Source: a virus. From it: DNA of 36,585 nucleotides. Made by a program: the position numbers and the translations under genes. Positions 5,535 to 28,756 of the stretch are shown here, piece by piece (the first letter of the stretch is position 1; the number at the start of each line of letters is the position of its first letter). The notes beneath the pieces were generated by a model. That model was not told the origin of the DNA. It saw nothing but the letters and a program-made list of their open reading frames with translations, and searched no databases. The stretch is taken from the UHGV virus genome UHGV-1373817. One strand, written 5' to 3'.

Positions 5535-7606
5535 TGAATTTATTTGAATTATTCGCAAAATTAAGCCTTGATTCAAGTGATTACGAAAAAGGAATATCTG
5601 ACGCTGAAAAGTCAGCTAAGGAATTATCAGATAAGTGGGGCAAAGGCACTACCCAGATGAAAAGCGGTCTGAAAGATGTCGGAGTTGGTGTCGGTGTTTT
5701 AGGCGGACTTGGTGGTGCAGCATTTAAAGCCGCCGATGGAGTTGCTTCGACAGCTGATGAAATAGACAAGATGTCTCAGAAGCTTGGTTTGTCAAAGAAA
5801 GCATACCAGGAATGGGATTATGTGTTACAGATATCTGGAACCGACATAAACAGCATGGGAGTAGGTCTTAAGACTCTCACTAATAAGTTTGATGATGCAA
5901 AGAATGGCGGTCAAGGGTCAATCGAAATGTTCCAAAAACTTGGGCTTTCCATGGAAGACATCAAAGACATGTCCAGAGAGGAACTCTTTGCAACGACCAT
6001 ATCTCAATTCCAGAAGATGGAAGATTCTGCTGAACGTGCCGCACTTGCAAATGATTTATTTGGTAAAAGCGGACAGGAACTCGCTCCCTTATTTAATACC
6101 ACAAATGAAGAAACAGAAGCTTTAATACAGAAAGTCAATGATCTCGGCGGAGTAATGTCCGATGATGCAGTAAAAAGTGGAGCAGAGTTTAAGGACTCTC
6201 TTACATCTTTGAAGTCTTCGTTCCAAGGAGCTACAGCTTCACTTTTGAAAGAACTTGTTCCTGCTATCACAAAGCTCATGGATAAGATATCAAAATTCGT
6301 AGCTGATGGCGGTCTTGAAAAGATAATGAAGGTGATGAAAGAACTTGCTCCTGTAGTCGTTGCACTCGTTGGCGCATTTGCGACATTTAAAGTCATAAGC
6401 GGAGTAGCAAAGATTGTATCAGGACTCACAACAGCTTTTTCTGTATTATCCGGAACGATTCCTCTTGTTATTGGAGCCTTGGGGCCATTACTTCCTGTTA
6501 TCGCGGCAATTACCGCGGCAGTTGTAGGAGTTATCGCGGTTATAAAAAACTGGGACAAGATAGTCGAAGTGGCCAAAGGCGTTGCAGAGGAGTTTGTAAA
6601 CTTCTGGGGTGAAGCGTGGGAAGGTGCTAAACAGTTAGCTTCCGACATTTGGACAGGTATCACAGAAGGCATTTCCGAAGCTTGGAACGGCCTGCAAGAA
6701 TTTCTTGTTGGAGTCATTACAGAGTTCGTTGATTTTTGGTCTGAAGCATGGGAAGGAGCTAAACAGTTAGTTTCTGATGTATGGAACGGTATAAGCGAGT
6801 TCTTCAGTGGAATTTGGACATCCATAAGCGAAACGGCATCTACTATATGGAATGGCGTTACAGGTTTCTTTAGTGAAACGTGGTCGTCAATCAAAGAAAC
6901 AGCGACAGGAGTATGGAACGAGTTCAGTTCATGGATAGGTGAGACTTGGAATGGCATCAAAGAGAAAGCGTCTGAGACATGGACAAATATCAAGGAAGGC
7001 ATAGGCGAAAAGTGGAATTCCATTAAAGAGAATACATCAACAGCGTGGTCAAATATTAAGAGTGGCTTGTCGTCAGCTTGGAGCGGGATAACAAATGGAG
7101 TCAGGAGCTTTGGTTCGAGTTTCAAAAGCTTTTGGGGAGATATCTTGAGTGGTATCTCTGGAAAGACAAGTGAACTGATCACTTCGGCTCTCACATGGGG
7201 CAAAGACCTTATTGATAACTTCATTGGCGGTATTAAGTCAATGATGGGAAAGCTTGGAGACGCTGTTAAGGGTATCGCAAGCAAGGTTAAGAGCTTCCTT
7301 GGATTCTCAGAACCGGAAGAAGGACCTCTTTCAAATTTCCATACTTATGCACCGGATATGATAGACCTTTTCACTAAAGGCATTTACGACAACATGAGAC
7401 AGGTTGAAACAGCATCAAGTGATTTAGCTGAGGCTATAAGACCTGACTTAACAGGCGGACTTGGAACCTTGGCTGTTGGCGGAACAGTTGCTGCAGCGGG
7501 TGTCGGTGGAGATTTAATCATTCCAGTATATATAGGAGCAAATAAACTCGATGAAATATTAATCAAACAGGAACAGCTCATCAATTACAGAAGCGGAGGA
7601 AGGTAA
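5534..7606 (+). CDS. Tail tape measure protein
   Basis: 690 aa after the G/GT chaperones. Hydrophobic Gly/Ala-rich segments. A long array of ~11-aa tryptophan repeats (W..I/W..G). Confidence 0.8.
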   Translation: MNLFELFAKLSLDSSDYEKGISDAEKSAKELSDKWGKGTTQMKSGLKDVGVGVGVLGGLGGAAFKAADGVASTADEIDKMSQKLGLSKKAYQEWDYVLQISGTDINSMGVGLKTLTNKFDDAKNGGQGSIEMFQKLGLSMEDIKDMSREELFATTISQFQKMEDSAERAALANDLFGKSGQELAPLFNTTNEETEALIQKVNDLGGVMSDDAVKSGAEFKDSLTSLKSSFQGATASLLKELVPAITKLMDKISKFVADGGLEKIMKVMKELAPVVVALVGAFATFKVISGVAKIVSGLTTAFSVLSGTIPLVIGALGPLLPVIAAITAAVVGVIAVIKNWDKIVEVAKGVAEEFVNFWGEAWEGAKQLASDIWTGITEGISEAWNGLQEFLVGVITEFVDFWSEAWEGAKQLVSDVWNGISEFFSGIWTSISETASTIWNGVTGFFSETWSSIKETATGVWNEFSSWIGETWNGIKEKASETWTNIKEGIGEKWNSIKENTSTAWSNIKSGLSSAWSGITNGVRSFGSSFKSFWGDILSGISGKTSELITSALTWGKDLIDNFIGGIKSMMGKLGDAVKGIASKVKSFLGFSEPEEGPLSNFHTYAPDMIDLFTKGIYDNMRQVETASSDLAEAIRPDLTGGLGTLAVGGTVAAAGVGGDLIIPVYIGANKLDEILIKQEQLINYRSGGR
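6591..6853 (+). repeat. ~132-bp tandem duplication inside the TMP (two 44-aa units FV[ND]FW[GS]EAWEGAKQL[AV]SD[IV]W..)
   Basis: Copy 1 at ~6591-6721 and copy 2 at ~6723-6853, with about 80% nucleotide identity by eye. Confidence 0.5.
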
Positions 7607-7975
7607 ATGTTAACAAGTTATCCAATATTACTTAATAATGTGACACTTCCCTTCCCTTCTGGATGGGATGAATCATATGACGTGATTGAAACTGTAAATC
7701 AGACAGAAGCGGGTACGGACTCAATCGAAGTCCAGAGATATGACAAGCTCTCTGTCTCTGTGTCAACAACATGCTTATCTGATCTAGCTGAAACACTTGC
7801 CGGATTAAAAGATGTAGATGTAATCGTATTGAAATATTACGACTTAAAAACAAAAGCATATAAAGAAAGAAATGTCCGAATGCGCAACTTTACAGCAAAG
7901 CTGTCTAAAAGCTCGCATACACTCTCAGCAACTAACGGAGTCTGGGACATATCTTTCAAATTGGAGGAATTTTAA
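7607..7975 (+). CDS. Small distal-tail (Dit-like) protein, putative
   Basis: Immediately after the TMP. TAATG overlap with the next gene. Confidence 0.4.
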   Translation: MLTSYPILLNNVTLPFPSGWDESYDVIETVNQTEAGTDSIEVQRYDKLSVSVSTTCLSDLAETLAGLKDVDVIVLKYYDLKTKAYKERNVRMRNFTAKLSKSSHTLSATNGVWDISFKLEEF

Positions 7976-9756
7976 TGTACGAAGTAAGCCAAAAGTATAT
8001 AACGGCTATGAATAAGCCAGTAATACGCTCTAAGCTGTGCCTCGTACTTGATGAAGAAGAGCTTACTGAGGCAGATATCTTGGCAGGCTCTTTTTCCATA
8101 TCAAATCAGTGTACGGACACAAGCGACATAACGCTTGGAGCTGTATATATTGGGGAACTGTCAGTTACATTTTTGCGATCAGTGACAGTGTCTCGAAATA
8201 GTTGGAAAGGTAGGCAGATAACAGCCTCATATAAATTATTAGTAGACACAGATGAATGGGAAGAAGTTCCTTTAGGTGTCTATACCATATCAGAGGCAAC
8301 ATATTCGAAGGTAGGTGTTGAAGTAAAGGCCTACGATAATATGAGCCTCCTGGATAAGAAATATACCACGGATGCAACAAGCGGAACGCCTTATGCATTA
8401 CTTAGCACTATGGCATCAGCTTGTGGCGTTACTTTAGGAAATACAGAGCAAGAAATCAGAGCCTTACCAAACGGAACTGAGACATTAACTCTGTATACAC
8501 CAAATGATTGTGAGACGTGGAGAGATTTGACCTCGTGTGTGGCTCAAGCAGTGGGGTGTTTTGCTTTTAGCGATAGATTGGGCAATATAACCCTAAAACG
8601 GCTCTATAGCCCCTCAGAAGCGACGATAGACACAAGTCACCGATATACGGGTGCAAAAATATCAGATTTTATCACTTATTACTCAGGGATCTCGCTTGTT
8701 AACCTCAGAACAGAGTCAACAGAGTATTATGGAGACCTTTACGACGATACAGGAGCCACGATCAATTTAGGGACTAATCCACTGCTCCAATACGGCACTA
8801 AAAACCACCGTGAAGAGATGGCAAGGCGAATACTTGCAGAAGTAGAGAACTACAGATACGTTCCTTGCTCTGCAGCACTCCCAAGTGCTTATGTATGTCT
8901 TGATCTAGGCGATGTAATCACATTAACCGATGGATTAGCCGGTCAATCATCTGCTGTCTGCGTAATGAGGTACGATTTTAATAAGCAGGATGGCTTTGAG
9001 TTTAGAACCTATGGCGATGACCCCGACTTGGCAAACGCACGAAGCAAGGTAGATAAAGATATCAGCGGCCTTCTGGCGAATGCGGAACAAGATAAATTCG
9101 TTGTCTATTCTTTCAAGAATTCCGAAGATATTACCATTGAAGATGGTCAGACGCTCAGAGTAATTAACCTTAGAATTGCATCTATCAACGATACGACAGT
9201 AATCTTTCAGGGTGAGATAACCTGCGAGGAATCTGCTGATCGCGGCAAGGTTAAAGTCCATTACAAGCTTAACAACAGTGATATCGATTATGCCCCAGAA
9301 GAAACATGGCTAGAAGGTAAGCACATATTGAGCCTGCTTTACAAGATGGAGATTGACTACTCGCAGCAATACCAGTGGGAAGTATACCTTGAGGCTGTAG
9401 GCGGAGATATAACCATCAAGGCCGGCGAGTCAAACGGCATCATATCTGGTATTGGTCTTGTAGCTTCAGATAAATGGACAGGCTACCTTGATTTCCAAGA
9501 AAGAATCGGAAGAATCAATCTTGACGATATCACGGTTAAGCCATTCACCGACACGACATTTAATGTATCAACTAAGATTCCGACAGGCGATAGCTTAACA
9601 GACGAGCTTGGAGCAATCACACTTGATACAGATATCGTAACTATAAAAGGCTTCACAGAGGCTTTATATTTCAACAAGTATCCATTACATGACCATTATT
9701 GGAGAGAAATCCAAGATATGAAATGGTCAGAGGTTGAAGATACATATTTCTGGTAA
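7975..9756 (+). CDS. Tail tip / Tal-like tail protein (Prophage_tail-like)
   Basis: 593 aa after TMP/Dit, the usual position of the tail-associated lysin or tip protein. Confidence 0.55.
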   Translation: MYEVSQKYITAMNKPVIRSKLCLVLDEEELTEADILAGSFSISNQCTDTSDITLGAVYIGELSVTFLRSVTVSRNSWKGRQITASYKLLVDTDEWEEVPLGVYTISEATYSKVGVEVKAYDNMSLLDKKYTTDATSGTPYALLSTMASACGVTLGNTEQEIRALPNGTETLTLYTPNDCETWRDLTSCVAQAVGCFAFSDRLGNITLKRLYSPSEATIDTSHRYTGAKISDFITYYSGISLVNLRTESTEYYGDLYDDTGATINLGTNPLLQYGTKNHREEMARRILAEVENYRYVPCSAALPSAYVCLDLGDVITLTDGLAGQSSAVCVMRYDFNKQDGFEFRTYGDDPDLANARSKVDKDISGLLANAEQDKFVVYSFKNSEDITIEDGQTLRVINLRIASINDTTVIFQGEITCEESADRGKVKVHYKLNNSDIDYAPEETWLEGKHILSLLYKMEIDYSQQYQWEVYLEAVGGDITIKAGESNGIISGIGLVASDKWTGYLDFQERIGRINLDDITVKPFTDTTFNVSTKIPTGDSLTDELGAITLDTDIVTIKGFTEALYFNKYPLHDHYWREIQDMKWSEVEDTYFW

Positions 9757-9767
9757 GGAGGTACAAA

Positions 9768-10511
9768 ATGATATATTCAGCAAATTACGGCTTAAAAGAA
9801 CCACAGAAAAACGTGGACTTAGCTGATGTCAATGACATCAACTATAATACTGAAGCCATAGATGGACTCATACATAACACGCAGGTGTCTCTAGCCCCTG
9901 CTTACGACCATACGCTCACATATGAAGTGGGCGATTTGGTCATGTATGAAACTCTGCTGTACGAATGTATTACAGCGGTCACTACCCCCGAAGCATGGGA
10001 TAGCACAAAGTGGCAGAGGGCATATTTAAGCGAAAATGCAGGCGGAGGTGGAAATGCAAATGTAACAGAGATTTCATACTCTCAGTATTCACTGTTAACC
10101 CCTGCTGAAAAGGCAAACGGAACTATCTATATGGTAACTGATGACCCAAATGATAGCGCAAGTGGTGGCGGAGGTGGTGGAGTTAACTATTCCACTACTG
10201 AACAGAATACGGGGTTAAAGTGGATTGATGGTAAAGACATTTATCAGAAATCTTTCACAAGGACTAATCAAGTCTATGGCGGAGGAATGACATTTGACAC
10301 GGGCGTATCTAATATTGATACACTTATCAATGATAGATGGTGCGTATATGGAGCTATAAACGTATCTAAACCTGTAACTGCCGAAGGTCAGTATATCAGA
10401 TGTGTACATAGTGGTAATGGAATCCTTACGATAGGAGCAAATGGCATTAATTTTAATGCCGCATCAAATAGAACGTGGACTCTTACTATTTGGTACACAA
10501 AAGCATCATAA
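9768..10511 (+). CDS. Tail fibre / receptor-binding accessory protein with a CBM5/12-like motif and two poly-Gly linkers
   Basis: AYDHTLTYEVGDLVMYETLLYECI...W..W fits the CBM5/12 pattern. GGGG and GGGGGG linkers precede a C-terminal module shared with 11943..12332. Confidence 0.5.
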   Translation: MIYSANYGLKEPQKNVDLADVNDINYNTEAIDGLIHNTQVSLAPAYDHTLTYEVGDLVMYETLLYECITAVTTPEAWDSTKWQRAYLSENAGGGGNANVTEISYSQYSLLTPAEKANGTIYMVTDDPNDSASGGGGGGVNYSTTEQNTGLKWIDGKDIYQKSFTRTNQVYGGGMTFDTGVSNIDTLINDRWCVYGAINVSKPVTAEGQYIRCVHSGNGILTIGANGINFNAASNRTWTLTIWYTKAS

Positions 10512-10524
10512 GAAAGGAGAAAGC

Positions 10525-11931
10525 ATGAATATTAAAGGACATACAAGTATTGAATTAACAGATGTCAATACAGGCAAGGTAGAAAAGTTTGAAGATGATA
10601 ATATGGTAACTAATGCCATCAGCCTTTTTTACAAGAGTGGTGGAATGACTAACCCTAGCGCATTTAATGACCTCTTAAAGACTGATGCAGTGGAAAACTT
10701 ACTTGGCGGTATCCTTTGCCTTGATGACACCATCACAGAATCAGCAAACATTGTCCATGTGCCTACAGGAGTTAACATGGTTGCAAATGGTTCAGTTGGT
10801 ATTCTTAACAGTGGCAATCCTCCCGAACTTGGCTCATACAATGAAAGCGAAAGTGGTTGGCAACAGGACGGTTCATACAAGCTAGTATTTGACTATACAA
10901 CATCACAGGGTAATGGTGTGATTAAGTCAGTATGCATGACAAGTAAGTACGAGGGGCTGAAAGGTATTGGAAATGCCTCTAATACAAGTAGAAGTGCATC
11001 AGCCCCACAGACACAGGCTGCCTACAATTCTATAAACAACATGGCTTTTGGTAAGAAGGGAATGGCAGACCTTATCGGTGTTTACAACAACAAAGTGCAT
11101 ACTATCTCAGCATACGACAATACTAATCACAAGGTTACGGTTAGCGAGTATGCAATGCCTGTAACAAGCCTTGATTTAAGAGATAAGGCAGAAGCAAGGC
11201 TTGTGGCTACAAGAGAAATAAGCTTGCCAAGTCCACTTAATACTTTGAATTTTGAATTTAACGGAAGTATTACATCAGTCACAGGTAACAAGTATAGGCT
11301 TCTTGATAGGGCAGTAGATGGTCAATATGCTTATCTCTTATATGTTTACTTAGGTCAAACACAGATAGGCTATAATGTATATACTTCTTACTTCATTTCG
11401 GATAACTACCCTGTATATCTTGTTAAATACGACATGGTTAATCATGTATTCAGTGTGGAAGAAACACTTACAGCCTCAGTTGTTGGTTTTTCAAATGAAA
11501 ATGCACAACATGGTATGCAGTCCATTGCTTTGGCGAAGAATTACATCTTATGGGAAGAGCACGTTATCACTATCGCTAATACTTCTGATGTAAATGATAT
11601 TAGCAGTTTTGATGATTATAAATTTAATAAGACTTTCCTCAAGGTTGATGATGACCATGTACAGTGCGAAAAGATGCTTGTTGACTTAGCAAGCGCAACA
11701 GCAAAGCCTGTAAATAGCGGAATTACTTACACAAAACTAGGCGATGTTAATGGCTCAATGCACTATGGCTGGACTTATGGATATCAAGCACCTTATGGAA
11801 GTGACGCAATAATAGTATATATATGGCGCAATCCTAGTTATATAGCCACTATCAACAATCTTGAAAATGCAGTTGAAAAGACGGGTGATAAAACGATGAA
11901 AGTCACCTATATCTTAACATTTACAGATTAG
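10525..11931 (+). CDS. Tail fibre / receptor-binding protein
   Basis: The true start is probably the ATG at 10525 (RBS AAAGGAGAAAG), not the longest-ORF start at 10441. 469 aa. Ends in TAG followed by a strong RBS. Confidence 0.45.
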   Translation: MNIKGHTSIELTDVNTGKVEKFEDDNMVTNAISLFYKSGGMTNPSAFNDLLKTDAVENLLGGILCLDDTITESANIVHVPTGVNMVANGSVGILNSGNPPELGSYNESESGWQQDGSYKLVFDYTTSQGNGVIKSVCMTSKYEGLKGIGNASNTSRSASAPQTQAAYNSINNMAFGKKGMADLIGVYNNKVHTISAYDNTNHKVTVSEYAMPVTSLDLRDKAEARLVATREISLPSPLNTLNFEFNGSITSVTGNKYRLLDRAVDGQYAYLLYVYLGQTQIGYNVYTSYFISDNYPVYLVKYDMVNHVFSVEETLTASVVGFSNENAQHGMQSIALAKNYILWEEHVITIANTSDVNDISSFDDYKFNKTFLKVDDDHVQCEKMLVDLASATAKPVNSGITYTKLGDVNGSMHYGWTYGYQAPYGSDAIIVYIWRNPSYIATINNLENAVEKTGDKTMKVTYILTFTD

Positions 11932-11942
11932 GAGGTGATTAA

Positions 11943-12332
11943 ATGGCTATTTATTATAACGGACATCTTCAATCCACTAAAGGCGGTGGAAGTTCAAGCA
12001 GTGGCGGTGGAATAGACTACAGCACAACCGAACAAGACACAGGACTTAAATGGATTGATGGGAAACCGATTTATCAAAAGACGTTTGTTGTCACTGACAC
12101 TAACTATATGGATATATCAGGACTTAATGTTGATACATTCGTGGGAATTGAAGGTCTTAGCTTGGCTGATGGTGATAGTGTAATCCCTCTGTATGATAAC
12201 GTTACATCTCAATATAGATGCTATCTTGATTTAGACAGAGCTAATATGAGGATGAAAGTTAATGTATATGGGTGGACTTTTGAAAGCGGTCACATCACTT
12301 TAAGATATACAAAAACAACGGATACAGTATAA
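11943..12332 (+). CDS. Paralogous tail-fibre module (stand-alone copy of the C-terminal domain of 9768..10511)
   Basis: G/S-rich linker followed by DYSTTEQDTGLKWIDGKPIYQKTF ... RYTK. Ends like ORF 9768. Confidence 0.45.
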   Translation: MAIYYNGHLQSTKGGGSSSSGGGIDYSTTEQDTGLKWIDGKPIYQKTFVVTDTNYMDISGLNVDTFVGIEGLSLADGDSVIPLYDNVTSQYRCYLDLDRANMRMKVNVYGWTFESGHITLRYTKTTDTV

Positions 12333-12605: not shown

Positions 12606-12935
12606 ATGCAGGCAATTCCATGGCTTATAAGCGCAGTGACTTGTCTGTTCGGTATTCTGACATATGCTAGGGGAGCACGAAGAGAACGGGACAGACAAAG
12701 ACAGAAAGATGAGGAGAGATATGCAGTAACAAATGAGTCACTTCTCAAGATTAACATTAAGCTTGACCAGATTACGACGACAACGATAGAGACTAAAGCA
12801 GAGGTCAAACGGCTTAATGAAATGCAGTATGAATTTGATAAACGTCTGACTGTGGTGGAATCTAAAGTCCAGGCAGCACAGACAGAAATATTACGGTTGA
12901 AAGGAGAACAAAAAAATGAACTGGATTACAGATAA
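12606..12935 (+). CDS. XhlA-like membrane-anchored coiled-coil protein (lysis accessory, putative)
   Basis: One N-terminal TM segment plus a long coiled coil. Sits directly upstream of the holin and endolysin, as xhlA does in PBSX. The longest ORF starts at 12567; the ATG at 12606 has a better RBS. Confidence 0.4.
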   Translation: MQAIPWLISAVTCLFGILTYARGARRERDRQRQKDEERYAVTNESLLKINIKLDQITTTTIETKAEVKRLNEMQYEFDKRLTVVESKVQAAQTEILRLKGEQKNELDYR

Positions 12936-13128
12936 GAAATGGTGGGATAAAGCAGTATCAAGAGCCATTAGAACAGTGGCACAGTCTGCTTTAGCCTATA
13001 TCGGAACAAGTGCAACAATGATGGGTGAAGTGAACTGGTGGGGCGTACTCTCAGCGGGTGTATTTGGTGGAGTAGTATCTATCCTTACATCATTCGCCGT
13101 AGGTATCCCTGAATACAAGGAGGACTAA
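12916..13128 (+). CDS. Holin
   Basis: 70 aa with two hydrophobic segments. Motif KAVSRAIRTVAQ. Strong RBS. Immediately upstream of the endolysin. Confidence 0.7.
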   Translation: MNWITDKKWWDKAVSRAIRTVAQSALAYIGTSATMMGEVNWWGVLSAGVFGGVVSILTSFAVGIPEYKED

Positions 13129-13129
13129 T

Positions 13130-14146
13130 ATGTTAAAAGGTATTGATGTTTCTGCTTGGCAGGGTGATATTGACTGGAAGAAGGTAAAGGGTGACGGCGT
13201 TGATGCTGTCATCCTTAAGGCAGGCGGAAGCGATGATGGGTTTTACACAGACTCAAAATTTGAGTCTAATTATAAAGGGGCAAAAGAAGCGGGGATTAAG
13301 GTTGGAGCTTATTATTTTGTAGGAGAGAGCTTTATCTCTAAGCCGGACGGTGAGGCTGATGCTGTTAGATTCTTAAAGATGCTCAAAGGCAAGCAGTTTG
13401 ACCTTCCTGTATACGTGGACGTTGAGGCAACAAAGCCGGAAGATAAGAACGGAGCAACAAACGCAACTATAGCCTTCTGTGATTATATGGAAGGAAATGG
13501 ATACTTTGTAGGTATATACGCGTCAGAAGTAAGTGGATTCAGAGACAGACTTGACGATAGCAAGCTTCAGAAGTATGCGCACTGGGTGGCTTGCTATGGG
13601 AAAGAAAAGCCGGCTATTCCATACGTTGGATGGCAGTATTCTTCTAGCGGTAAGGTTGCAGGCATCAACGGAAACGTTGATATGGATGAGTTCGAAGATC
13701 TATCCGAAACAATCATATCTGGAGGATTTAACGGATATGCTAACCGTATTGAGCCGGACATTGTTAAGCCTTCAAAGAAAGTAGTACAGGTGAAGCGGAA
13801 AACAGATAAAGAGATTGCTGCTGAGGTTCTTGATGGACTGTGGGGCAACGGTGACGAAAGAGAAAAGAAGTTAACAGATGCAGGATATAATTATGACAAG
13901 ATTCAGGACATTGTAAATGGCATGATCAGTGACGGTTATATCGCAGGAAAAGAGTACAAAGTAGTTACTCCATACGGCCTTAACGTAAGAAAAGGACCTA
14001 GCAAGGATTACGATATAATTAAGGCGTTAAGCACTGGCACGAAGGTAGTTCCTACAGAGATCAAGAGCCGGAGAGACAATACCTGGATGAAGATGTCTGA
14101 CGGATGGATTTGTGCAAGAGAAGGCAATGATAGATTTGTAAAATAA
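13130..14146 (+). CDS. Endolysin: GH25 muramidase + CW_7 (Cpl-7-like) repeat + SH3b
   Basis: N-terminus GIDVSAWQGDIDWKKVK is a GH25 signature. LDGLWGNGDEREKKLTDAGYNYDKIQDIVN is a CW_7 repeat. The C-terminus YKVVTPYGLNVRKGPS...W is SH3b-like. Confidence 0.85.
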   Translation: MLKGIDVSAWQGDIDWKKVKGDGVDAVILKAGGSDDGFYTDSKFESNYKGAKEAGIKVGAYYFVGESFISKPDGEADAVRFLKMLKGKQFDLPVYVDVEATKPEDKNGATNATIAFCDYMEGNGYFVGIYASEVSGFRDRLDDSKLQKYAHWVACYGKEKPAIPYVGWQYSSSGKVAGINGNVDMDEFEDLSETIISGGFNGYANRIEPDIVKPSKKVVQVKRKTDKEIAAEVLDGLWGNGDEREKKLTDAGYNYDKIQDIVNGMISDGYIAGKEYKVVTPYGLNVRKGPSKDYDIIKALSTGTKVVPTEIKSRRDNTWMKMSDGWICAREGNDRFVK

Positions 14147-14172
14147 TAATGATCGGGACAGAAAGGGGAAAC

Positions 14173-14379
14173 ATGAAAAGACAACTCGATTTGTCCCGTT
14201 CAGAAAAAGAAAACTTAATAAATGAATGGATACCAAGCGCAAGGGATAGAGATATCCTTAAGCGCAGGCTAGTGGATGGAATCGCCTTTGAAAGTTTAGG
14301 CGAAGAATTTCATCTATCAACGCAGCGGATAAAGGTGATAGTTTACCAAGGAATTGATAAGCTGAGCCTACATTTATAA
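14173..14379 (+). CDS. Stand-alone sigma-70 region-4-like HTH protein
   Basis: DILKRRLVDGIAFESLGEEFHLSTQRIKVIVYQGIDKL matches region 4.2 of sigma factors. RBS GAAAGGGGAAAC. Confidence 0.5.
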   Translation: MKRQLDLSRSEKENLINEWIPSARDRDILKRRLVDGIAFESLGEEFHLSTQRIKVIVYQGIDKLSLHL

Positions 14380-14384
14380 CCTCG

Positions 14385-14432
14385 GCCATCTGTCTGGAGT
14401 GATCCGGATGGGTGGCTTTTTGGATTTCCACG
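14385..14432 (+). terminator. Weak GC-rich hairpin plus T5, a possible terminator
   Basis: CCATC...GATGG/GTGGC followed by TTTTT. Confidence 0.3.
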
Positions 14433-14451
14433 AAATTCGTGAAAAAATATG

Positions 14452-14480
14452 TTGACACACCACGGAAACCGTGGTAATAT
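14452..14480 (+). promoter_or_regulatory. Consensus sigmaA-type promoter with a palindromic operator in the spacer
   Basis: TTGACA (14452-14457), a 17-nt spacer, then TAATAT (14475-14480). The spacer contains the perfect palindrome CCACGGAAACCGTGG (14460-14474). Confidence 0.6.
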
Positions 14481-14523
14481 ATATTTACAAAATAAATATA
14501 AACATTTTATGGAGGTAAAAATT

Positions 14524-15024
14524 ATGAAAAGATACACAGATATGATTAGTGATATGGAATATGATCACCTTGACACACTTATAGGCCTTAATGACATTGA
14601 CCCAAAGAATATAGAAGTCCGCGATAACCATACGAAAGAGATTATAAAGGAAGCGTTTAGACCATCCGAATACATTAGAAGACTTACAAATATGAGCAGA
14701 GCAGAGTTCTCAAAGGCCTACAAGATTCCTGTAAGAACGTTAGAGGATTGGGATGCAGGAAGGTCAAAACCTACGGATTATGTAATTGACTTACTTGCTA
14801 GGGCTGTTTATTCAGATGTATACGAAAAGGTAGTTGAATTTGAGGTGGTAACTAAATCTGATCAGAGCGATGACGAGTGGTCACAGCTTAGAACAAAGAG
14901 CTTCCTTGAGGCTTTTAGAATGGGCGAAAAAGAGTCAGGGCACTACTGGAACGAGATAAGAATATACACAGACGAAGAAGAGTGCAACTGGAATGAGCTT
15001 GAATACAACAGAATATATGAATAG
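14524..15024 (+). CDS. Moron protein with an XRE/HigA-type HTH
   Basis: RTLEDWDAGRSKPTDYVIDLLARAV is the classic antitoxin-type HTH signature. The gene has its own promoter and terminator. Start is the ATG at 14524 after GGAGGT. Confidence 0.5.
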   Translation: MKRYTDMISDMEYDHLDTLIGLNDIDPKNIEVRDNHTKEIIKEAFRPSEYIRRLTNMSRAEFSKAYKIPVRTLEDWDAGRSKPTDYVIDLLARAVYSDVYEKVVEFEVVTKSDQSDDEWSQLRTKSFLEAFRMGEKESGHYWNEIRIYTDEEECNWNELEYNRIYE

Positions 15025-15035
15025 AGTACTTTTTA

Positions 15036-15069
15036 AAGACTTCCACTTGATTGTGGAGGTCTTTTTTTA
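15036..15069 (+). terminator. Rho-independent terminator
   Basis: AAAGACTTCCAC pairs with GTGGAGGTCTTT (one G-U), followed by T7. Confidence 0.65.
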
Positions 15070-15159
15070 TGCTTATAATTAAAAAAAACGATATGAAATG
15101 CTCAAATTTGCAGAAAAATTGCGAAAATTGGCGCTTAAAAACGAAAAAGGCGGTTTTAA

Positions 15160-15534
15160 ATGTATAATCCATATTTTTATCAACAGAATTATCAACAGAA
15201 TTATCAACAGCAGAATTATCTTCCTCAGCAGCAGATCATCCAGGTAAATGGAAAAGCAAGTGTTGATACTATCCAGTTAGCACCTAACAGCTCAGTTTTG
15301 GTTATGGATACATCGGCTCCAATAGTCTGGATGTGTGTATCTGATGGAATTGGAAAAGTAACAAGTACTCCATATGACATTGTGGTTCACAAAGAAGAAC
15401 CTCCGGTGGATATGGCAAGTGTTGAAACAAGAATATCAAAGCTAGAGCAGATTATTGCAGAAATGAGGTCAAATAATGAATCCAATGATGATGAATTTAA
15501 ACAATCCAATAAAAACGATGTTCGAAAAGGTTAA
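15160..15534 (+). CDS. Protein with a Q/N/Y-rich prion-like N-terminus
   Basis: MYNPYFYQQNYQQNYQQQNYLPQQQ followed by a globular domain. Confidence 0.45.
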   Translation: MYNPYFYQQNYQQNYQQQNYLPQQQIIQVNGKASVDTIQLAPNSSVLVMDTSAPIVWMCVSDGIGKVTSTPYDIVVHKEEPPVDMASVETRISKLEQIIAEMRSNNESNDDEFKQSNKNDVRKG

Positions 15535-15706
15535 GACTGCCGGCAATCCTCAAATGATGATGCAGCAGATGATGGGACAAAATCCACAGATCAAGCAGGC
15601 GATGGATTATATACAGCAGAACGGTGGAGATCCTAAAGAGGCATTTTATAAGCTAGCAAAAGAAAAAGGGATTAATCCGGACGACATACTAAATCAATTA
15701 AAGTAA
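15476..15706 (+). CDS. Small Met/Gln/Asn-rich protein
   Basis: RBS GAGGT. MNPMMMNLNNP...MMMQQMMGQNPQ. Overlaps the 3' end of the previous ORF. Confidence 0.35.
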   Translation: MNPMMMNLNNPIKTMFEKVKTAGNPQMMMQQMMGQNPQIKQAMDYIQQNGGDPKEAFYKLAKEKGINPDDILNQLK

Positions 15707-15747
15707 GCAATGCGCACAGCTTAAATATAATTTAAAGGAGAAAACTT

Positions 15748-16398
15748 ATGGATAATGGAATAACACCAGTAATGCCAATAGGTGGCTCAAACGGAGACTG
15801 GGGAAATAACAGCTTCTTTTGGGTGTTTGCTCTGCTCCTCTTAGGAATGGGTGGATTCGGTGGCTTTGGCAATAACAACTTCGCTAACGCCATAGGTTAC
15901 GAGAACCTTGCAACTTCAAATGAAGTACAGAGAGGTTTCGACAATCAGAATCAGCTTGCTAACGAAAGAGAGATTCTTTCCGCAGTAAACTCAGGCACAG
16001 CACAGGCTGTAGCCGCTACAAATCAGACTTTCCATGATACTCTTGGTATTATTCAGAGCAGATACGATGAACTTGCAAGAGATATTAGTGGAATCGCTGT
16101 AGGACAGGCACAGGCTCTTGCTAACCAGAATGCATGTTGCTGTGAGACTAAACAGATGATCATGCAGTCTAATTATGACGGAGCTATGAGAGATGCGGCT
16201 ACAAATGCCAACTTCACTGCACAGATTCAGTCAGTTAAAGACATGATAGCGCAGGATAAGATTGAGTCTTTACAGGCGCAGGTTTCTCAGCTTCAGCTTG
16301 CACAGGCTACAGCAGGAGTTCTTAAGTTCCCAAATCAGTGGAGCTATGGGGCAGGACCATTCCCACCAATCTTTGGGGGATGTTGCAATAACATTTAA
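15748..16398 (+). CDS. Gly-rich membrane/coiled-coil protein with ACCCE and a terminal GGCCNNI
   Basis: TM-like FFWVFALLLLGMGGFGGFG, a long Q/A helical region, and a Cys triplet. Strong RBS AAAGGAGAAAAC. Confidence 0.45.
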   Translation: MDNGITPVMPIGGSNGDWGNNSFFWVFALLLLGMGGFGGFGNNNFANAIGYENLATSNEVQRGFDNQNQLANEREILSAVNSGTAQAVAATNQTFHDTLGIIQSRYDELARDISGIAVGQAQALANQNACCCETKQMIMQSNYDGAMRDAATNANFTAQIQSVKDMIAQDKIESLQAQVSQLQLAQATAGVLKFPNQWSYGAGPFPPIFGGCCNNI

Positions 16399-16410
16399 CG
16401 TCAGATAGAC

Positions 16411-16446
16411 GAGGAACAAGGCAGGCTTAGTTCCTGCCTCTTTTTA
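16411..16446 (+). terminator. Rho-independent terminator
   Basis: AGGCAGG ... CCTGCCT hairpin followed by CTTTTTAT. Confidence 0.55.
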
Positions 16447-16460
16447 TAAAGGAGAACAAT

Positions 16461-16865
16461 ATGGGAAAAAGTTTAATACAGACAACTAACCAGTCACAGC
16501 AGACCGTGGCTGTAAACAGCATCATATCACTTGGTTCAGTGCTTAGAAGATACGGATGCAATTTAAGATTATCCGGAAATGGTATAGAAGTGACAGGAGA
16601 AGGCTATTATAAAATAGATTCAAATGTATCAGTATCGCCAACAGCAGCGGGACCTGTTACAGTGGCTTTGTATAATAACGGAGTCCAGATACCTGGAGCA
16701 ATAGCTTATGGCTCTGTATCAACAGCAGGCAATCCAATCACTTTACCTTTAGAGACAACTATCAGACAGGCTTGTTGCTGTGATTCCGCAGATAACATTA
16801 CTTGTGTGCTTCTTGAAGGAGCCGGAGTTGTAGATAATATTTCGGTAAGGGTAGAGAAGTCTTGA
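16461..16865 (+). CDS. BclA C-terminal-domain-like (C1q/TNF-like jelly-roll) protein without collagen repeats
   Basis: GEGYYKIDSNVSVSPTAAGPVTVALYNNGVQIPGA...NISVRVEK aligns by eye with the B. anthracis BclA CTD FYKITVIANTATASVLGGLTIQVNGVPVPGT...SIIIEKV (recalled). Contains ACCCD. Confidence 0.6.
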   Translation: MGKSLIQTTNQSQQTVAVNSIISLGSVLRRYGCNLRLSGNGIEVTGEGYYKIDSNVSVSPTAAGPVTVALYNNGVQIPGAIAYGSVSTAGNPITLPLETTIRQACCCDSADNITCVLLEGAGVVDNISVRVEKS

Positions 16866-17089
16866 GAGATGATTTTCTCGATATTTTAACATTGATGAGC
16901 TTTGTTATCTCACTTGAAAATCTGGATCTAAACGTCACGCAGGAAGATGCACAAAACCTTGAGAAAAACATGGATGAGAAAATGAACAGGTTACTCAATG
17001 AGATACATGCTCATTTAAAGGCGCAAGACAAAAAGATAGATGAAATCTTAAAGGAGTTAAAGGATGACAAGAATAAAAGAATTAGCTGA
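16862..17089 (+). CDS. Hypothetical coiled-coil protein (start uncertain)
   Basis: Longest ORF uses TTG. The first ATG is at 16895. Confidence 0.3.
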   Translation: MRDDFLDILTLMSFVISLENLDLNVTQEDAQNLEKNMDEKMNRLLNEIHAHLKAQDKKIDEILKELKDDKNKRIS

Positions 17090-17363
17090 TAAGATTAAAG
17101 ATGAGCTTTGTTCCGCAAAGGACTACGCTGAGGAGTATCTGACATTTAAGGCAAAGGATAATGGCACATGGGCTAACCGATACAAGGAAATGGCACAGGA
17201 AGAGCTTAAACATGCCGGATGGATACATGACAGGGCCGTGGAAGAGATAGAAGAGCTGAGAAAAGTGTATACACCACCACAGGACATGCTTGATAAGTGG
17301 AATGCTGATCATAAGAAATACATTGAAAAGGCTGCTTGGATTAAGCAGATGTTGGCGATGTAA
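17064..17363 (+). CDS. Hypothetical helical protein
   Basis: RBS AAAGGAGTTAAAGG. Confidence 0.4.
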   Translation: MTRIKELADKIKDELCSAKDYAEEYLTFKAKDNGTWANRYKEMAQEELKHAGWIHDRAVEEIEELRKVYTPPQDMLDKWNADHKKYIEKAAWIKQMLAM

Positions 17364-17641
17364 TGACAATAGAAGAGATTAACCACGAGATAGAACAGCT
17401 TGAACCTGCAGAGATCAATACAAGAAATGTGCAGGTGTTGGCTAATCTGTATACAATAAGAGATAATCTTAACGTCCCTTGCTCTGCTGATCGATTTCCG
17501 CAGATGAATGGCTCAGAATTAAACAGAGCGATATCCGGCAAGGGTGTAGGCGATGTTCTGGAAGTATTTAATGAACTTATGGACACACTTCAAATGATGG
17601 CTCCAAAACTCTACGAAGCAACTTTGCAAAGACTAATGTAA
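17363..17641 (+). CDS. Hypothetical protein
   Basis: TAATG coupling with the upstream ORF. Confidence 0.4.
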   Translation: MTIEEINHEIEQLEPAEINTRNVQVLANLYTIRDNLNVPCSADRFPQMNGSELNRAISGKGVGDVLEVFNELMDTLQMMAPKLYEATLQRLM

Positions 17642-17656: not shown

Positions 17657-17710
17657 AAACCTTTACAAATGGCTTAAATGCGTTGTTTACATATGACTTT
17701 TAATCAAGTT

Positions 17711-17738
17711 GTCGCGGGTTCGAGTCCCGCGTGGCTCA
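17711..17738 (+). other. attP core: 3'-terminal fragment of a tRNA gene (T-arm GCGGG-TTCGAGT-CCCGC plus acceptor 3' strand GTGGCTC plus discriminator A)
   Basis: A canonical T-stem/loop is present. No complementary 5' acceptor strand lies upstream, so this is not a full tRNA. Confidence 0.6.
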
Positions 17739-17749
17739 TAACTTAGAAA

Positions 17750-17793
17750 AACCGTCATTCCTTAGTAAAATCTAGGGTTATGACGGTTTTTTA
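17750..17793 (+). terminator. Rho-independent terminator just 3' of the attP core
   Basis: AACCGTCAT (17750-17758) pairs with ATGACGGTT (17780-17788), followed by TTTTT. Confidence 0.65.
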
Positions 17794-18039: not shown

Positions 18040-19173
18040 CTATTGGAAAATATTATTCAGAGCCTCAGAAGTCTTTTCTTTCCCTTCCACCAGATGAGAA
18101 TATACATCAATGACCATCTTTTCGTTATCACCCAGGAGTCGTGCAATCTCTTTAGTTGATATAATTGGAATCTGATAACACAATTCTGTGCAGTAGTTAT
18201 GCCTGAATGTATGGGCCGTCAAGTTTTGGATAGGTCTTACAGGTTTAGGGACTTTTTGCTGTGGATCATAACCGAGGGCAATGTTCATGCTGCAGATTAT
18301 TGATTCCCACATCCTGCGATAACCTATTGCTGTCATCATCTCGTTGTTTTCCACATGGAATAGATATTTGTCTGCACATTTAGTTACATAAGGCTTTATA
18401 TAAGGCATAGAAGCCACAGGAAGGGGCACAGAACGTATTCCGTTATCAGATTTAGGATAATCCTTTAAAACAGGTCTATTTGAGTCAAAAACGATAGCCT
18501 TTGATATCCTCACGGTGCTATCAGCCCAGTTAAAATCTTCTGGAGTCAGGGCAAGAGCTTCACCACGCCTTAAACCACAGTAGTAAAGTATCGATATAAA
18601 GGCTCTTTTTCTTTCGTCCAGTTCAGCCTTCTGTAAAGCCTCTTTTTCTAACTCATTTAAAGGCTTTTTAAGAGGCTTTTGATATTTAGGCAAGGAAATG
18701 TCTGTTAATATATCATCTATGGCTGTGCGGGGCAACAGGTGGTCTCTGACGGCTGATTTAATAATCTGACTGAATGTTAATTTGATAGTCTTACAGGTTC
18801 TTGGCTTATCCGAATATTGATTAATGATTGACTGCAGATCGGAGTGATTAATTGACGTAAGCTGACGGTCGGATATATCACCGAAATATGAAAGAGTATA
18901 CTTGTACATCTTCTGGGTGTTTAGCTCTTTTGTGGACTTAGCGACATTAAGCCATCTTTCCGCATATTCTCCAAATGTAACATTTGACATTGTAGTGCCT
19001 TGCTCTTCTAAGGAACGCTTAAACTCAAGAACCTTCTTCTCAAGGTCAGCAGATGACTTTTTGCTTATTATTCGTTTCCTGCGTTTAGCTCCATTAGGCA
19101 TCAAGGTTCCATCATAGACAAACGTGCACCATGCTTTCCGCTCCTCACTGTAACTGTATTTAGCTTTTGCCAT
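18040..19173 (-). CDS. int: Tyrosine integrase
   Basis: 377 aa. C-terminal HTFRHNYCTEL and VIDVYSHLV give the R..HxxR..Y catalytic signature. Adjacent to attP. Confidence 0.9.
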   Translation of the reverse strand: MAKAKYSYSEERKAWCTFVYDGTLMPNGAKRRKRIISKKSSADLEKKVLEFKRSLEEQGTTMSNVTFGEYAERWLNVAKSTKELNTQKMYKYTLSYFGDISDRQLTSINHSDLQSIINQYSDKPRTCKTIKLTFSQIIKSAVRDHLLPRTAIDDILTDISLPKYQKPLKKPLNELEKEALQKAELDERKRAFISILYYCGLRRGEALALTPEDFNWADSTVRISKAIVFDSNRPVLKDYPKSDNGIRSVPLPVASMPYIKPYVTKCADKYLFHVENNEMMTAIGYRRMWESIICSMNIALGYDPQQKVPKPVRPIQNLTAHTFRHNYCTELCYQIPIISTKEIARLLGDNEKMVIDVYSHLVEGKEKTSEALNNIFQ

Positions 19174-27490: not shown

Positions 27491-28756
27491 ATGGACGATA
27501 TGATTATTGATTGCTTCGCCGGTGGTGGCGGGGCAAGCGTGGGAATAGAAATGGCATTAGGGCGTCATGTTGATATAGCTGTTAATCATGACCCGCAGGC
27601 CATAAGGATGCACAAGGTTAACCATCCGGATACATTACATCTAACTGAGGATATCTTTTCAGTAGACTTGGAAAGATATGTAGATGGCAGAAGAGTGCCT
27701 TTGATGTGGGCGAGTCCTGATTGTACAAGCCACAGCAAGGCAAAAGGTGGACAGCCAAGAAACAGCGGATTAAGAATACTTCCCTGGGCGGTTCATAAAC
27801 ATGCGAAGGTTCTTAATCCAGAGGTAATTATTATGGAAAATGTTGAGGAAATACAGGAATGGGGACCTTTGAATGAATATGGATTTCCAATAAAGGAAAG
27901 AAAAGGAGAGGAATATAAGCGGTTTGTAGGAGCCATGGAAGACCTTGGATACAACTTTGATTGCAGAGAGCTTGTAGCTGCTGATTACGGCGCACCCACA
28001 ACACGAAAAAGATGGTATGCAGTATTAAGAAAAGACGGAAGGGATATAGTTTTCCCTGATCAGACTCACAGCAAGGATGGAATCGAATATGATAAATGGC
28101 TTGAGTGTGGCGATTATATCGACTGGAGTGACCTTGGGAAATCTGTATTTGACAGAAAGAAGCCATTAGCTGAGGCTACACAGAAAAGAATAGCTTTAGG
28201 CATTCAGAAGTACATCGTTAATAATCCTCATCCTTATATGGTAAGGAACAATCAAGTGGCTTCATTCCTTATTCAGTATCACGGTGAGACAAGGGAAGGA
28301 GATTGCAGAGGGCAGTACCTGGATGAACCTATAAAGACATTAGATACAAGCAACAGATATGGCTTAGTAAGTGCCTTTTTAATTAAGTACTACGGTACAG
28401 GATGCGGCCAAGAGCTTAGCCTTCCACTTGGAACCATAACCACAAAGGATAGATTTGGACTTGTTACGGTAGAAATCAACGGAGAGACATACAGAATCAA
28501 AGATATATTCTTGAGGATGCTTAAACCAGAGGAGCTTAAGGTATTACAAGGATTTCCAAAGGATTACATCATAGACAGGGATATAAATTGGAAACCTTAT
28601 CCGATAAAAGAGCAGGTTGCAAGAATAGGTAACAGTGTAGTGCCTGTAATGGCTGAATCGCTTGTCAGAGCTAATTGCAGCTATTTGAGAATCGGAGAAA
28701 GAACGCCAAATATTACATTTAGAAATGTTAATGGACAGATGGAAATAGCAGTTTAG
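27491..28756 (+). CDS. DNA cytosine-5 methyltransferase
   Basis: Motif I DCFAGGGGAS. A motif IV variant SPDC. Motif VI ENV. RxR motif TTRKRWYAV. Motif X RIGNSVVPV. Confidence 0.75.
   Translation: MDDMIIDCFAGGGGASVGIEMALGRHVDIAVNHDPQAIRMHKVNHPDTLHLTEDIFSVDLERYVDGRRVPLMWASPDCTSHSKAKGGQPRNSGLRILPWAVHKHAKVLNPEVIIMENVEEIQEWGPLNEYGFPIKERKGEEYKRFVGAMEDLGYNFDCRELVAADYGAPTTRKRWYAVLRKDGRDIVFPDQTHSKDGIEYDKWLECGDYIDWSDLGKSVFDRKKPLAEATQKRIALGIQKYIVNNPHPYMVRNNQVASFLIQYHGETREGDCRGQYLDEPIKTLDTSNRYGLVSAFLIKYYGTGCGQELSLPLGTITTKDRFGLVTVEINGETYRIKDIFLRMLKPEELKVLQGFPKDYIIDRDINWKPYPIKEQVARIGNSVVPVMAESLVRANCSYLRIGERTPNITFRNVNGQMEIAV

Follow-up and report, generated by a model that had tools for sequence, protein, structure and literature searches.

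A co-inherited phage operon with a stand-alone BclA-like domain between the lysis genes and the probable attachment site

Described relatives and the phage locus

The closest described relative of protein D, which together with the phage operon encoding it is the subject of this analysis, is the C-terminal domain of BclA from Bacillus anthracis (PDB 1WCK, PF18573). D is one of seven products, here called A to G, of an operon in the virus genome UHGV-1373817, which was analysed over its whole length of 36,585 nucleotides (the window). D is like the BclA domain in fold and shows weak specific sequence homology to it. Unlike BclA, however, D is devoid of collagen-like GXX repeats, of a leader and of any N-terminal extension, and it has a loop with a cysteine triplet. 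D is also phage-encoded, whereas BclA belongs to a bacterial sporulation locus.

Other systems compare with D in different ways. To the exosporium basal-layer anchor ExsFA/BxpB (PDB 7R1M, 8D02, 9H3D), D has no sequence-level match, and orthology is not shown by sequence; the exosporium leader TIGR03720 was detected neither in C or A nor in any other product of the operon (NCBIfam, E up to 1). Among predicted viral structures (BFVD), the ten best matches of D are stand-alone proteins of 130-153 amino acids from uncultured human-gut phages, with template modelling (TM) scores of 0.83-0.93, and two of the ten are annotated as 'BclA protein'. Such entries from uncultured gut Siphoviridae, Myoviridae and Podoviridae (A0A8S5SGY1, A0A8S5M9U0), 19-29% identical to D, probably belong to the same broad family as D. 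Phage fibre knobs such as the cyanophage A-1(L) tail fibre CBD, PRD1 P5 and the Sf6 needle knob are fused to a shaft and encoded among structural genes. In contrast, D has a gene of its own behind the lysis cassette, and its putative stalk is a different polypeptide, protein C, which carries a hydrophobic anchor.

In position, the operon is like the accessory genes (morons) found between the lysin and the attachment site (attP) of Gram-positive phages, which are likewise terminator-bounded and optional. Typical morons are single genes, whereas A to G belong to a 7-8 gene operon that includes what looks like a dedicated regulator and shows no recognisable toxin, exclusion or metabolic function. 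Directed full-text literature searches found no description of the A-to-G cassette, and the literature on phage-carried sporulation genes yielded no phage-borne coat or exosporium genes. Indeed, the entries in the systematic catalogue of gut-phage sporulation genes are regulators, partitioning and repair genes and cortex hydrolases, and coat or exosporium proteins do not figure in it (PMC10294663). Judged from these sequence comparisons, A to G appears to be phage accessory or conversion cargo in a previously undescribed cassette.

The operon and its products

An earlier reading of this DNA, made from its letters without database searches (the sequence-only reading), had described an island of four genes carrying BclA-like and spore-coat-like proteins. 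The four open reading frames (ORFs), the motifs NACCCE and GGCCNNI in C and the motif QACCCD in D were all found as that reading had claimed. The co-oriented core genes thus stand, but the unit is larger than four genes. The genes A to G in the window are as follows.

15160-15534, plus strand: A, 124 amino acids, with a Q/N/Y-rich N-terminus, a small beta domain and a C-terminal helix (PHROG 21718, E 6e-5)
15476-15706, plus strand: B, 76 amino acids, Met/Gln-rich and helical, overlapping the 3' end of A (ORF, homologues)
15748-16398, plus strand: C, 216 amino acids, with a hydrophobic N-terminus, a mosaic middle, a CCC motif and a conserved C-terminus (PHROG 16490, E 6e-7)
16461-16865, plus strand: D, 134 amino acids, a stand-alone domain with the fold of the BclA C-terminal domain and of C1q/TNF, carrying a CCC loop (Pfam, PDB profile, structure model, homologues)
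16862-17089, plus strand: E, moderately hydrophobic at its N-terminus and coiled-coil-like in its tail, overlapping the stop of D (ORF, homologues)
17064-17363, plus strand: F, 99 amino acids, ferritin/rubrerythrin-like (motif conservation, profile matches)
17363-17641, plus strand: G, 92 amino acids, the last gene of the operon (ORF, synteny)

Loci of other phages (designated L002, L003 and so on) were compared by tblastn with the window proteins, in the contexts of D, C and A homologues. The conserved unit consists of a small regulator gene (sig4) followed by A-B-C-D, then E and/or F and often G, making 7-8 genes that occupy 14149-17641 in the window. The same gene order was found in about 20 loci of different uncultured phages from gut, rumen and bioreactor contigs. 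In some of these loci the order is intact although identity to the window proteins has dropped to 30-40% for A, B and C; D there is 60-80% identical. This divergence of A, B and C makes it unlikely that one recently spread DNA segment accounts for the synteny. The genes are also coupled: A and B share 59 nt, and in D/E, E/F and F/G the stop of the first gene is overlapped by the second gene. Thus, A to G is a co-inherited operon with its own regulator and not a loose four-gene island.

Clustered at 90% identity, homologues number more than 7,000 for C, more than 900 for D and more than 400 for A. The genes of the module were absent from all cultured phages in INPHARED, where the only matches were four uncultured human-faecal 'Bacteriophage sp.' records. 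Host labels come solely from metagenome-assembled genomes and consist of 'Eubacteriales bacterium' and a probably mis-binned Bacteroidales contig. Contigs that bear the module are 30-130 kb long. Since phages with related endolysins mostly lack A to D, the module is optional among phages.

By its sequence, D is a distant relative within the BclA_C domain family. Pfam BclA_C (PF18573) matched residues 8-89 of D with 23.7 bits (E 4.8e-5), below the 38-bit gathering score, and the same family is precomputed on some D homologues that are 77-87% identical. While the single sequence of D had no match in the PDB, a profile built from 41 diverse homologues gave BclA chains as the sole significant match (E 1.6e-5 to 1.3e-4, D residues 16-101), and the aligned part takes in GEGYYKI and NGVQIPGA, stretches already matched by eye in the sequence-only reading. 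The AlphaFold2 (AF2) model of D, built as a monomer only, is all beta, with a predicted local distance difference test (pLDDT) score of 92.8 and a ten-stranded C1q/TNF jelly-roll, a fold with TNF-like bacterial lectins and the Chlamydia protein Pgp3, which is secreted, among its relatives. Taken together, these results uphold the resemblance to BclA that had been drawn by eye, and also the remark that collagen-like repeats are lacking, the 134 residues being the domain only. On the other hand, D does not count as a BclA protein: collagen region and leader are both missing, and its Pfam score falls short of the threshold. Its match to NCBIfam GXX_rpt_CTERM had an E value of 0.08.

At E <=1e-3, 902 homologues of D were found, and the best 120 listed are 76-100% identical to it, almost all with 133-134 amino acids. 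At 50% clustering, relatives comprise 812 representatives (E <1e-3), and nearly all full-length ones among the 150 listed have 130-143 amino acids. Homologues with an N-terminal extension (P0329, P0352, P0376 and others) were considered as fusions and rejected as miscalled starts or chimeras. A single-sequence scan of viral contigs for the D family gave no match. That D homologues might be receptor-binding heads within tail-fibre loci had been named as a possible refutation of the spore reading; in the loci compared they are instead stand-alone proteins of about 134 amino acids inside the A-B-C-D cassette. In two loci (L006 and L022) the module lies downstream of Collar-domain genes, yet as a separate A-B-C-D cassette. 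At L006 (11762-20405), a 2,890-amino-acid PhageMin_Tail protein lies 3' of both the module and the Collar-domain fibre genes. A tape-measure-like gene is not usually placed in this order, and the locus may represent two adjoining elements.

The cysteine triplet of D (C105-C107) is invariant in 18 close homologues and sits in the least confident block of the model; in relatives at 35-50% identity it becomes CC, CxC or nothing. In C, (A/E/S)CCC is near-invariant in 18 homologues. On these patterns of conservation in both families, the triplet that C and D have in common is not due to chance.

C is the only A-to-G product with a strongly hydrophobic segment, an N-terminal stretch flanked by Gly/Asn with a mean Kyte-Doolittle value of 1.78 over 19 residues, compared with 2.0 for the holin transmembrane segment. 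Its long middle is rich in Q/N/A/T and visibly mosaic between loci, and both termini are conserved, the C-terminal one as RFPNxWxYGAGPFPPIFGxCGCNxNI with Ile always last. Conserved ends around a mosaic middle would be expected of an anchor, a spacer and a docking tail. PHROG 16490 was the only family match of C, and Pfam searches with 18 homologues gave nothing meaningful. Profiles of A, B and C searched against the PDB returned insignificant coiled-coil or designed-protein matches only. DUF7211 (PF23847) was rejected as the identity of C, as the matches in L022 fall on inserted unrelated genes; there, paralogous DUF7211 genes at 7551-8231 and 9335-9985 flank C inside the module and look like small mobile or selfish insertions. 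In three loci an extra small gene of about 70-90 amino acids, by reading, lies between C and D (L015 ~7716-7990, L020 ~7753-8000, L018 ~7775-7985). Its product in L015 ends approximately in GGSYCCTPSLPE, as read by hand from the intergenic DNA, and the module may thus contain another Cys-Cys protein. Inspection of the A-to-G sequences found no N-terminal signal peptide.

A had been called a Q/N/Y-rich, prion-like protein. This fits its variable first ~25 residues, rich in Y/Q/N/P, but the rest is a conserved beta domain of ~50 residues and a helix. The AF2 prediction of A with a 27-sequence alignment was of low confidence (pLDDT 57) and was not used for fold searches, and A has no family match beyond PHROG 21718. 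The overlap of A and B, in different frames and ~50-60 nt long, is conserved in L002, L010 and L013, and it covers the poorly conserved tail of A and the conserved N-terminus of B (MNPM/L...). Two members of a mixed set of B, E, F and G sequences weakly matched Pfam XPC-binding (STI1-like), a match that was attributed, by the type of family, to the 18 B sequences; that B acts as a chaperone or adaptor is only a suggestion. E was considered as a BhlA/UviB-type holin and rejected for want of Pfam support, and G has no family match.

F is, by its motifs, a mini ferritin/rubrerythrin-like protein. E14, Y21 and E47-x-x-H50 are invariant, matching the helix-A Glu/Tyr and helix-B ExxH motif, and the profile of F matched BfrB (E 1.3e-4) in an alignment that spans the motif. 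Rubrerythrin and Mn_catalase were matched by six and three members of the mixed set, respectively, and these matches were assigned to the nine F sequences on family type. Since only half of the four-helix ferritin domain is present, the activity of F is uncertain.

Regulator, repeats and genome setting

The regulator gene and the regulatory DNA of the operon are given below.

14149-14379, plus strand: sig4, 76 amino acids, sigma-70 region 4 alone (Pfam Sigma70_r4, E 2.6e-5), a putative regulator
14384-14417, plus strand: terminator-like hairpin after sig4
14428-14448, plus strand: GAAA-core repeat CCACGAAATTCGTGAAAAAAT, directly 5' of a promoter at 14452-14480
14524-15024, plus strand: helix-turn-helix (HTH) gene between sig4 and A (weak HTH_3 and PHROG 25567 matches)
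15035-15064, plus strand: terminator-like hairpin 5' of A
15110-15132, plus strand: tandem GAAA(A/T)-core direct repeat GCAGAAAAATTGCGAAAATTGGC before A, a putative operator
16399-16439, plus strand: inverted repeat CGTC-N5-GACG with AGG (16399-16414) and, after it, a GC-rich terminator hairpin (16419-16439), in the gap from C to D

A sig4 gene lies 5' of A in 11 loci (nine distinct sequences), encoding proteins of 56-84 amino acids. Region 4 of TIGR02937 was matched by eight of the nine homologues, their PDB matches are region 4 of SigF and SigW, and sigma-70 region 2 is absent from them. Consisting solely of region 4 of a sigma-70/ECF-type factor, sig4 does not qualify as a sigma factor and is instead a DNA-binding protein of the region-4 type.

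The promoter at 14452-14480 is near-consensus (TTGACA-17-TAATAT). The HTH gene that follows is unique to the window and absent from the other module loci. Its start is likely the ATG at 14524, after GGAGG, and not 14449, the promoter lying inside the maximal ORF. An Rfam match to RsaF at 15030-15149 was sub-threshold and probably due to chance.

The tandem pattern [CG]GAAA[AT][AT] has two matches in the window, at 15110-15132 and at an unrelated-looking site at 27833. Two to five tandem repeats of ~11 bp with a GAAA(A/T) core lie 5' of A in other loci, clearest in L011 (~6510-6570), L015 (~6165-6215), L016, L020 (~6290-6325) and L023. The repeat is GAAAATCGTCT in L011, present five times with one variant copy, and GAAAATGAGCT in L020, present three times; the bases after the core vary between loci and are repeated within a locus. 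Most other loci have looser GAAA-core pairs, usually just 5' of sigma70-like -35/-10 elements. The pattern [CGT]GAAA-N6-9-NGAAA was found in five of 14 regions compared with 0.58 expected; neither window site matches it. The closest relatives of sig4 recognise GAAAC-type -35 elements, and we infer that the GAAA-core repeats are putative binding sites of sig4. An assignment of the upstream repeats as Spo0A boxes was dropped, as their spacing misfits TGNCGAA.

Between C and D, the sequence ACG[TC]C-N5-G[AG]CG followed by AGG comes directly after the C stop in 14 of 17 loci, and a terminator with a U-tract and the ribosome-binding site of D come next. A small hairpin defined by hand at this place has one covarying pair (UA to CG in five sequences), which is not above shuffles, and RNAalifold predicted no structure on the intergenic alignment of the 17 loci. 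The arrangement suggests controlled read-through from A-B-C into D-E-F-G; alternatively, the element may be a protein-binding site. The four genes had been credited with terminators of their own. Terminators are present before A, between C and D and after the attachment-site-like segment described below, but none was found after A, B or D.

The setting of the operon is defined by the following features.

12916-13128, plus strand: holin, start of the lysis cassette (PHROG 443 holin, E 6e-15)
13130-14146, plus strand: endolysin with glycoside hydrolase family 25 (GH25), CW_7 and SH3 domains (Pfam Glyco_hydro_25, E 2e-33; CW_7, E 4e-17; PHROG endolysin)
17694-17739, plus strand: segment like the 3' end of a tRNA or tmRNA, with a T-arm (17714-17730) and an acceptor-like part (17731-17738), candidate attP core
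17746-17792, plus strand: strong terminator hairpin followed by a U-tract (-24.5 kcal/mol, z -6.9)
18040-19173, minus strand: tyrosine integrase (ORF; Phage_integrase in the Pfam scan of the window)

Pfam and PHROG scans show that the window is a complete temperate siphovirus genome with terminase, portal, major head, tape measure, lysis, integrase and ERF/SSB/RusA early genes, and the phage is of a Clostridia type. Whole-window scans of the ORFs with both databases found no sporulation genes; the genome is otherwise that of an ordinary temperate siphovirus. The T-arm of the segment at 17694-17739 has a partial Rfam tmRNA match (17713-17730, E 1e-3), and no complete tRNA is present there. From its sequence the segment is probably the attP core; by eye, it also contains an anticodon-loop-like CTTTTAA, which suggests tRNA-Lys(UUU). 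A tRNA-like 3' end followed by a strong terminator is the classic layout that restores a host tRNA or tmRNA gene upon integration. With the holin and endolysin upstream, and the tRNA-like end, the terminator and the minus-strand integrase downstream, the placement of A to D between lysis genes and attP by the sequence-only reading is correct. In other loci too, the module lies downstream of a lysis gene wherever one is identifiable (L002, L015, L017, L022 and L023). An integrase or serine recombinase follows the module in three loci, being a tyrosine integrase in the window and L003 and a serine recombinase in L023.

Some neighbours of the module were recorded in individual loci. L003 (11253-14705 and 19289-19849) has two BspA-type leucine-rich-repeat (LRR)/DUF285 proteins and a family 2 glycosyltransferase (GT2) downstream, and a SleB/CwlJ-type hydrolase (Hydrolase_2) in its early region, a class reported to be enriched in phages of spore-formers (PMC10294663). 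In L009 a GT2 gene lies two genes 5' of C, and a called gene of 190 amino acids at 11404-11976 has seven in-frame stops in table 11, pointing to a miscall or to stop-codon recoding.

What the module may build

We tentatively favour the possibility that A to G builds a knob-on-stalk decoration on the spore surface of a sporulating lysogen, an analogue of the BclA/ExsFA nap with an alpha-helical stalk. By analogy with the BclA domain, D would form a trimeric knob. C would be the stalk, with its hydrophobic Gly-flanked N-terminus anchored in or on a membrane, its mosaic middle as a long helical shaft, and its Pro/Cys-rich C-terminal tail presented to D. ExsF/BxpB-type trimers bind partner peptides in the clefts between subunits (PMC12357932). 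The cysteine clusters (CCC in C and D, CC/CGC at the end of C) would lock the structure by disulfides once it is outside the reducing cytoplasm, with A, B, E and G as assembly or adaptor partners and F supplying or controlling an oxidant or metal. Since no product has a signal peptide, the structure would be assembled cytoplasmically or on the inner side of a membrane and exposed only upon lysis of the surrounding cell. Expression would run from sig4 through A-B-C to an attenuating terminator and then D-E-F-G, and the site of display would be the surface of the developing spore, on the outer forespore membrane or coat. We infer the contact of C with D, the disulfide lock, the roles of A, B, E, F and G, the regulation by sig4 and the location on the spore.

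Several observations favour this spore-surface decoration. Synteny holds in about 20 loci across phages with tyrosine or serine recombinases, and the module, optional in its presence, appears as terminator-bounded cargo at the prophage end next to attP. The closest structural relatives of D are exosporium proteins, and the Cys, Tyr and ferritin/Mn-catalase-like content of the products would be coat-like chemistry. The neighbours in some loci appear to be of surface type (GT2, BspA-LRR), with a SleB-like gene in L003.

Other observations weigh against it. sig4 begins 3 nt after the endolysin stop in the window and follows the holin in L023, and is thus probably on the late lysis transcript. Promoters of the sigmaE or sigmaK type had been predicted upstream, and a regular-expression scan for Bacillus-type sigmaE/K/F/G promoters gave no match 5' of A (13 loci) or of sig4 (nine loci), although the scan is a weak test, since its consensus is of the Bacillus type and may not be that of the hosts. 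The expected spore-coat families were not matched by any product, nor was there a match to an exosporium family or the exosporium leader, which GPFPPI of C resembles by eye only. With no such match, the case for a coat or exosporium function comes from fold and composition. D is unusually conserved for a surface-exposed antigen, with identities of 76-87% in the non-identical homologues listed. The cassette is found, too, on phage contigs of 82 kb (L022) and 132 kb (L009) that are possibly not temperate. In L027, a sig4 homologue (7810-7944) follows the endolysin with no A to D within 7 kb; sig4 is therefore not strictly tied to A to D, and the region-4-only protein may have a role beyond the module. 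Many rumen and gut Clostridia, moreover, do not sporulate. The earlier interpretation as a whole is thus partly supported: the spore reading is coherent, yet sporulation-type promoters were not found and sig4 abuts the endolysin.

Two settings fit the products, the mother cell of a sporulating lysogen or a phage-lysed cell. The second underlies the explanation that ranks next, which we regard as possible at low probability: that A to G is a very late lytic module turned on by sig4 from the lysis transcript, with products acting at or after lysis as a virion-associated decoration, or as a matrix capable of cross-linking or a membrane-fragment coat that is set free together with the progeny. The position of sig4 just described speaks for it, as do the tandem GAAA-core repeats, which lie just 5' of sigma70-like promoters in the manner of activator sites, and the failure to find sporulation promoters. 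Without signal peptides, release would depend on lysis, and oxidation of the cysteine clusters would have to wait until the products are free. Large phage contigs also bear the module, one of which (L009) has its own replication genes and encodes DnaE and NrdD, and C1q/TNF-like knobs are common in virion fibres. However, the lysis cassette and terminators separate the module from the structural genes, it lies outside the tail-fibre genes proper and is optional among phages, and a place beside attP is where conversion cargo typically lies. We know of no phage precedent for a released matrix. A statement that spans both settings, namely that the module is a self-contained phage kit for a disulfide-locked, BclA/ExsFA-like nap on the host spore or on lysis-released material, is in our view doubtful.

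The region between lysis genes and attP is a common site of prophage exclusion genes, and a role in superinfection exclusion or defence would have C, perhaps with E, anchor a membrane complex in which D senses a component of an incoming phage. The hydrophobic anchor of C, a mosaic middle that suggests diversifying exchange, and an optional module with its own regulator would all fit. But the products gave no PADLOC match at E <0.01 (only chance-level ones at E 0.02-0.03), no effector of an enzymatic or pore-forming kind can be recognised, D shows strong conservation and no diversification, and the low-complexity Cys-rich composition points to a structural assembly. We consider such a role unlikely.

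Lower still in our ranking, and quite improbable, is that D is a released TNF/C1q-like lectin or adhesin acting on animal glycans or receptors or on other bacteria, with the other products aiding its folding or release. The lectins and Pgp3 among its fold relatives and its high conservation across gut and rumen phages agree with this, whereas there is no signal peptide or recognised export partner, E has no holin-family match, and the conserved A, B, C and F are left unexplained. That unrelated morons adjoin here by chance with no joint function is hardly credible: most products lack a family match, as noted, but synteny already contradicts it, the order being kept in about 20 loci despite the divergence of A, B and C to 30-40% identity, as do the coupled genes and the Cys motif common to C and D.

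The A-to-G operon is a large piece of the 'viral dark matter' of gut and rumen that offers a clear structural handle in its BclA-like knob. Should the operon decorate spores or lysis products, temperate phages would be linked to the surface, adhesion and transmission of anaerobic Firmicutes. In the case of a spore nap, phages would reshape the outermost layer of the form in which their host is transmitted, a class of conversion outside the present catalogue (PMC10294663). If the operon is a very late lytic module, it would represent a new temporal class of genes with an unusual regulator made of sigma region 4 only. Either outcome, spore decoration or late lytic function, would be new biology.

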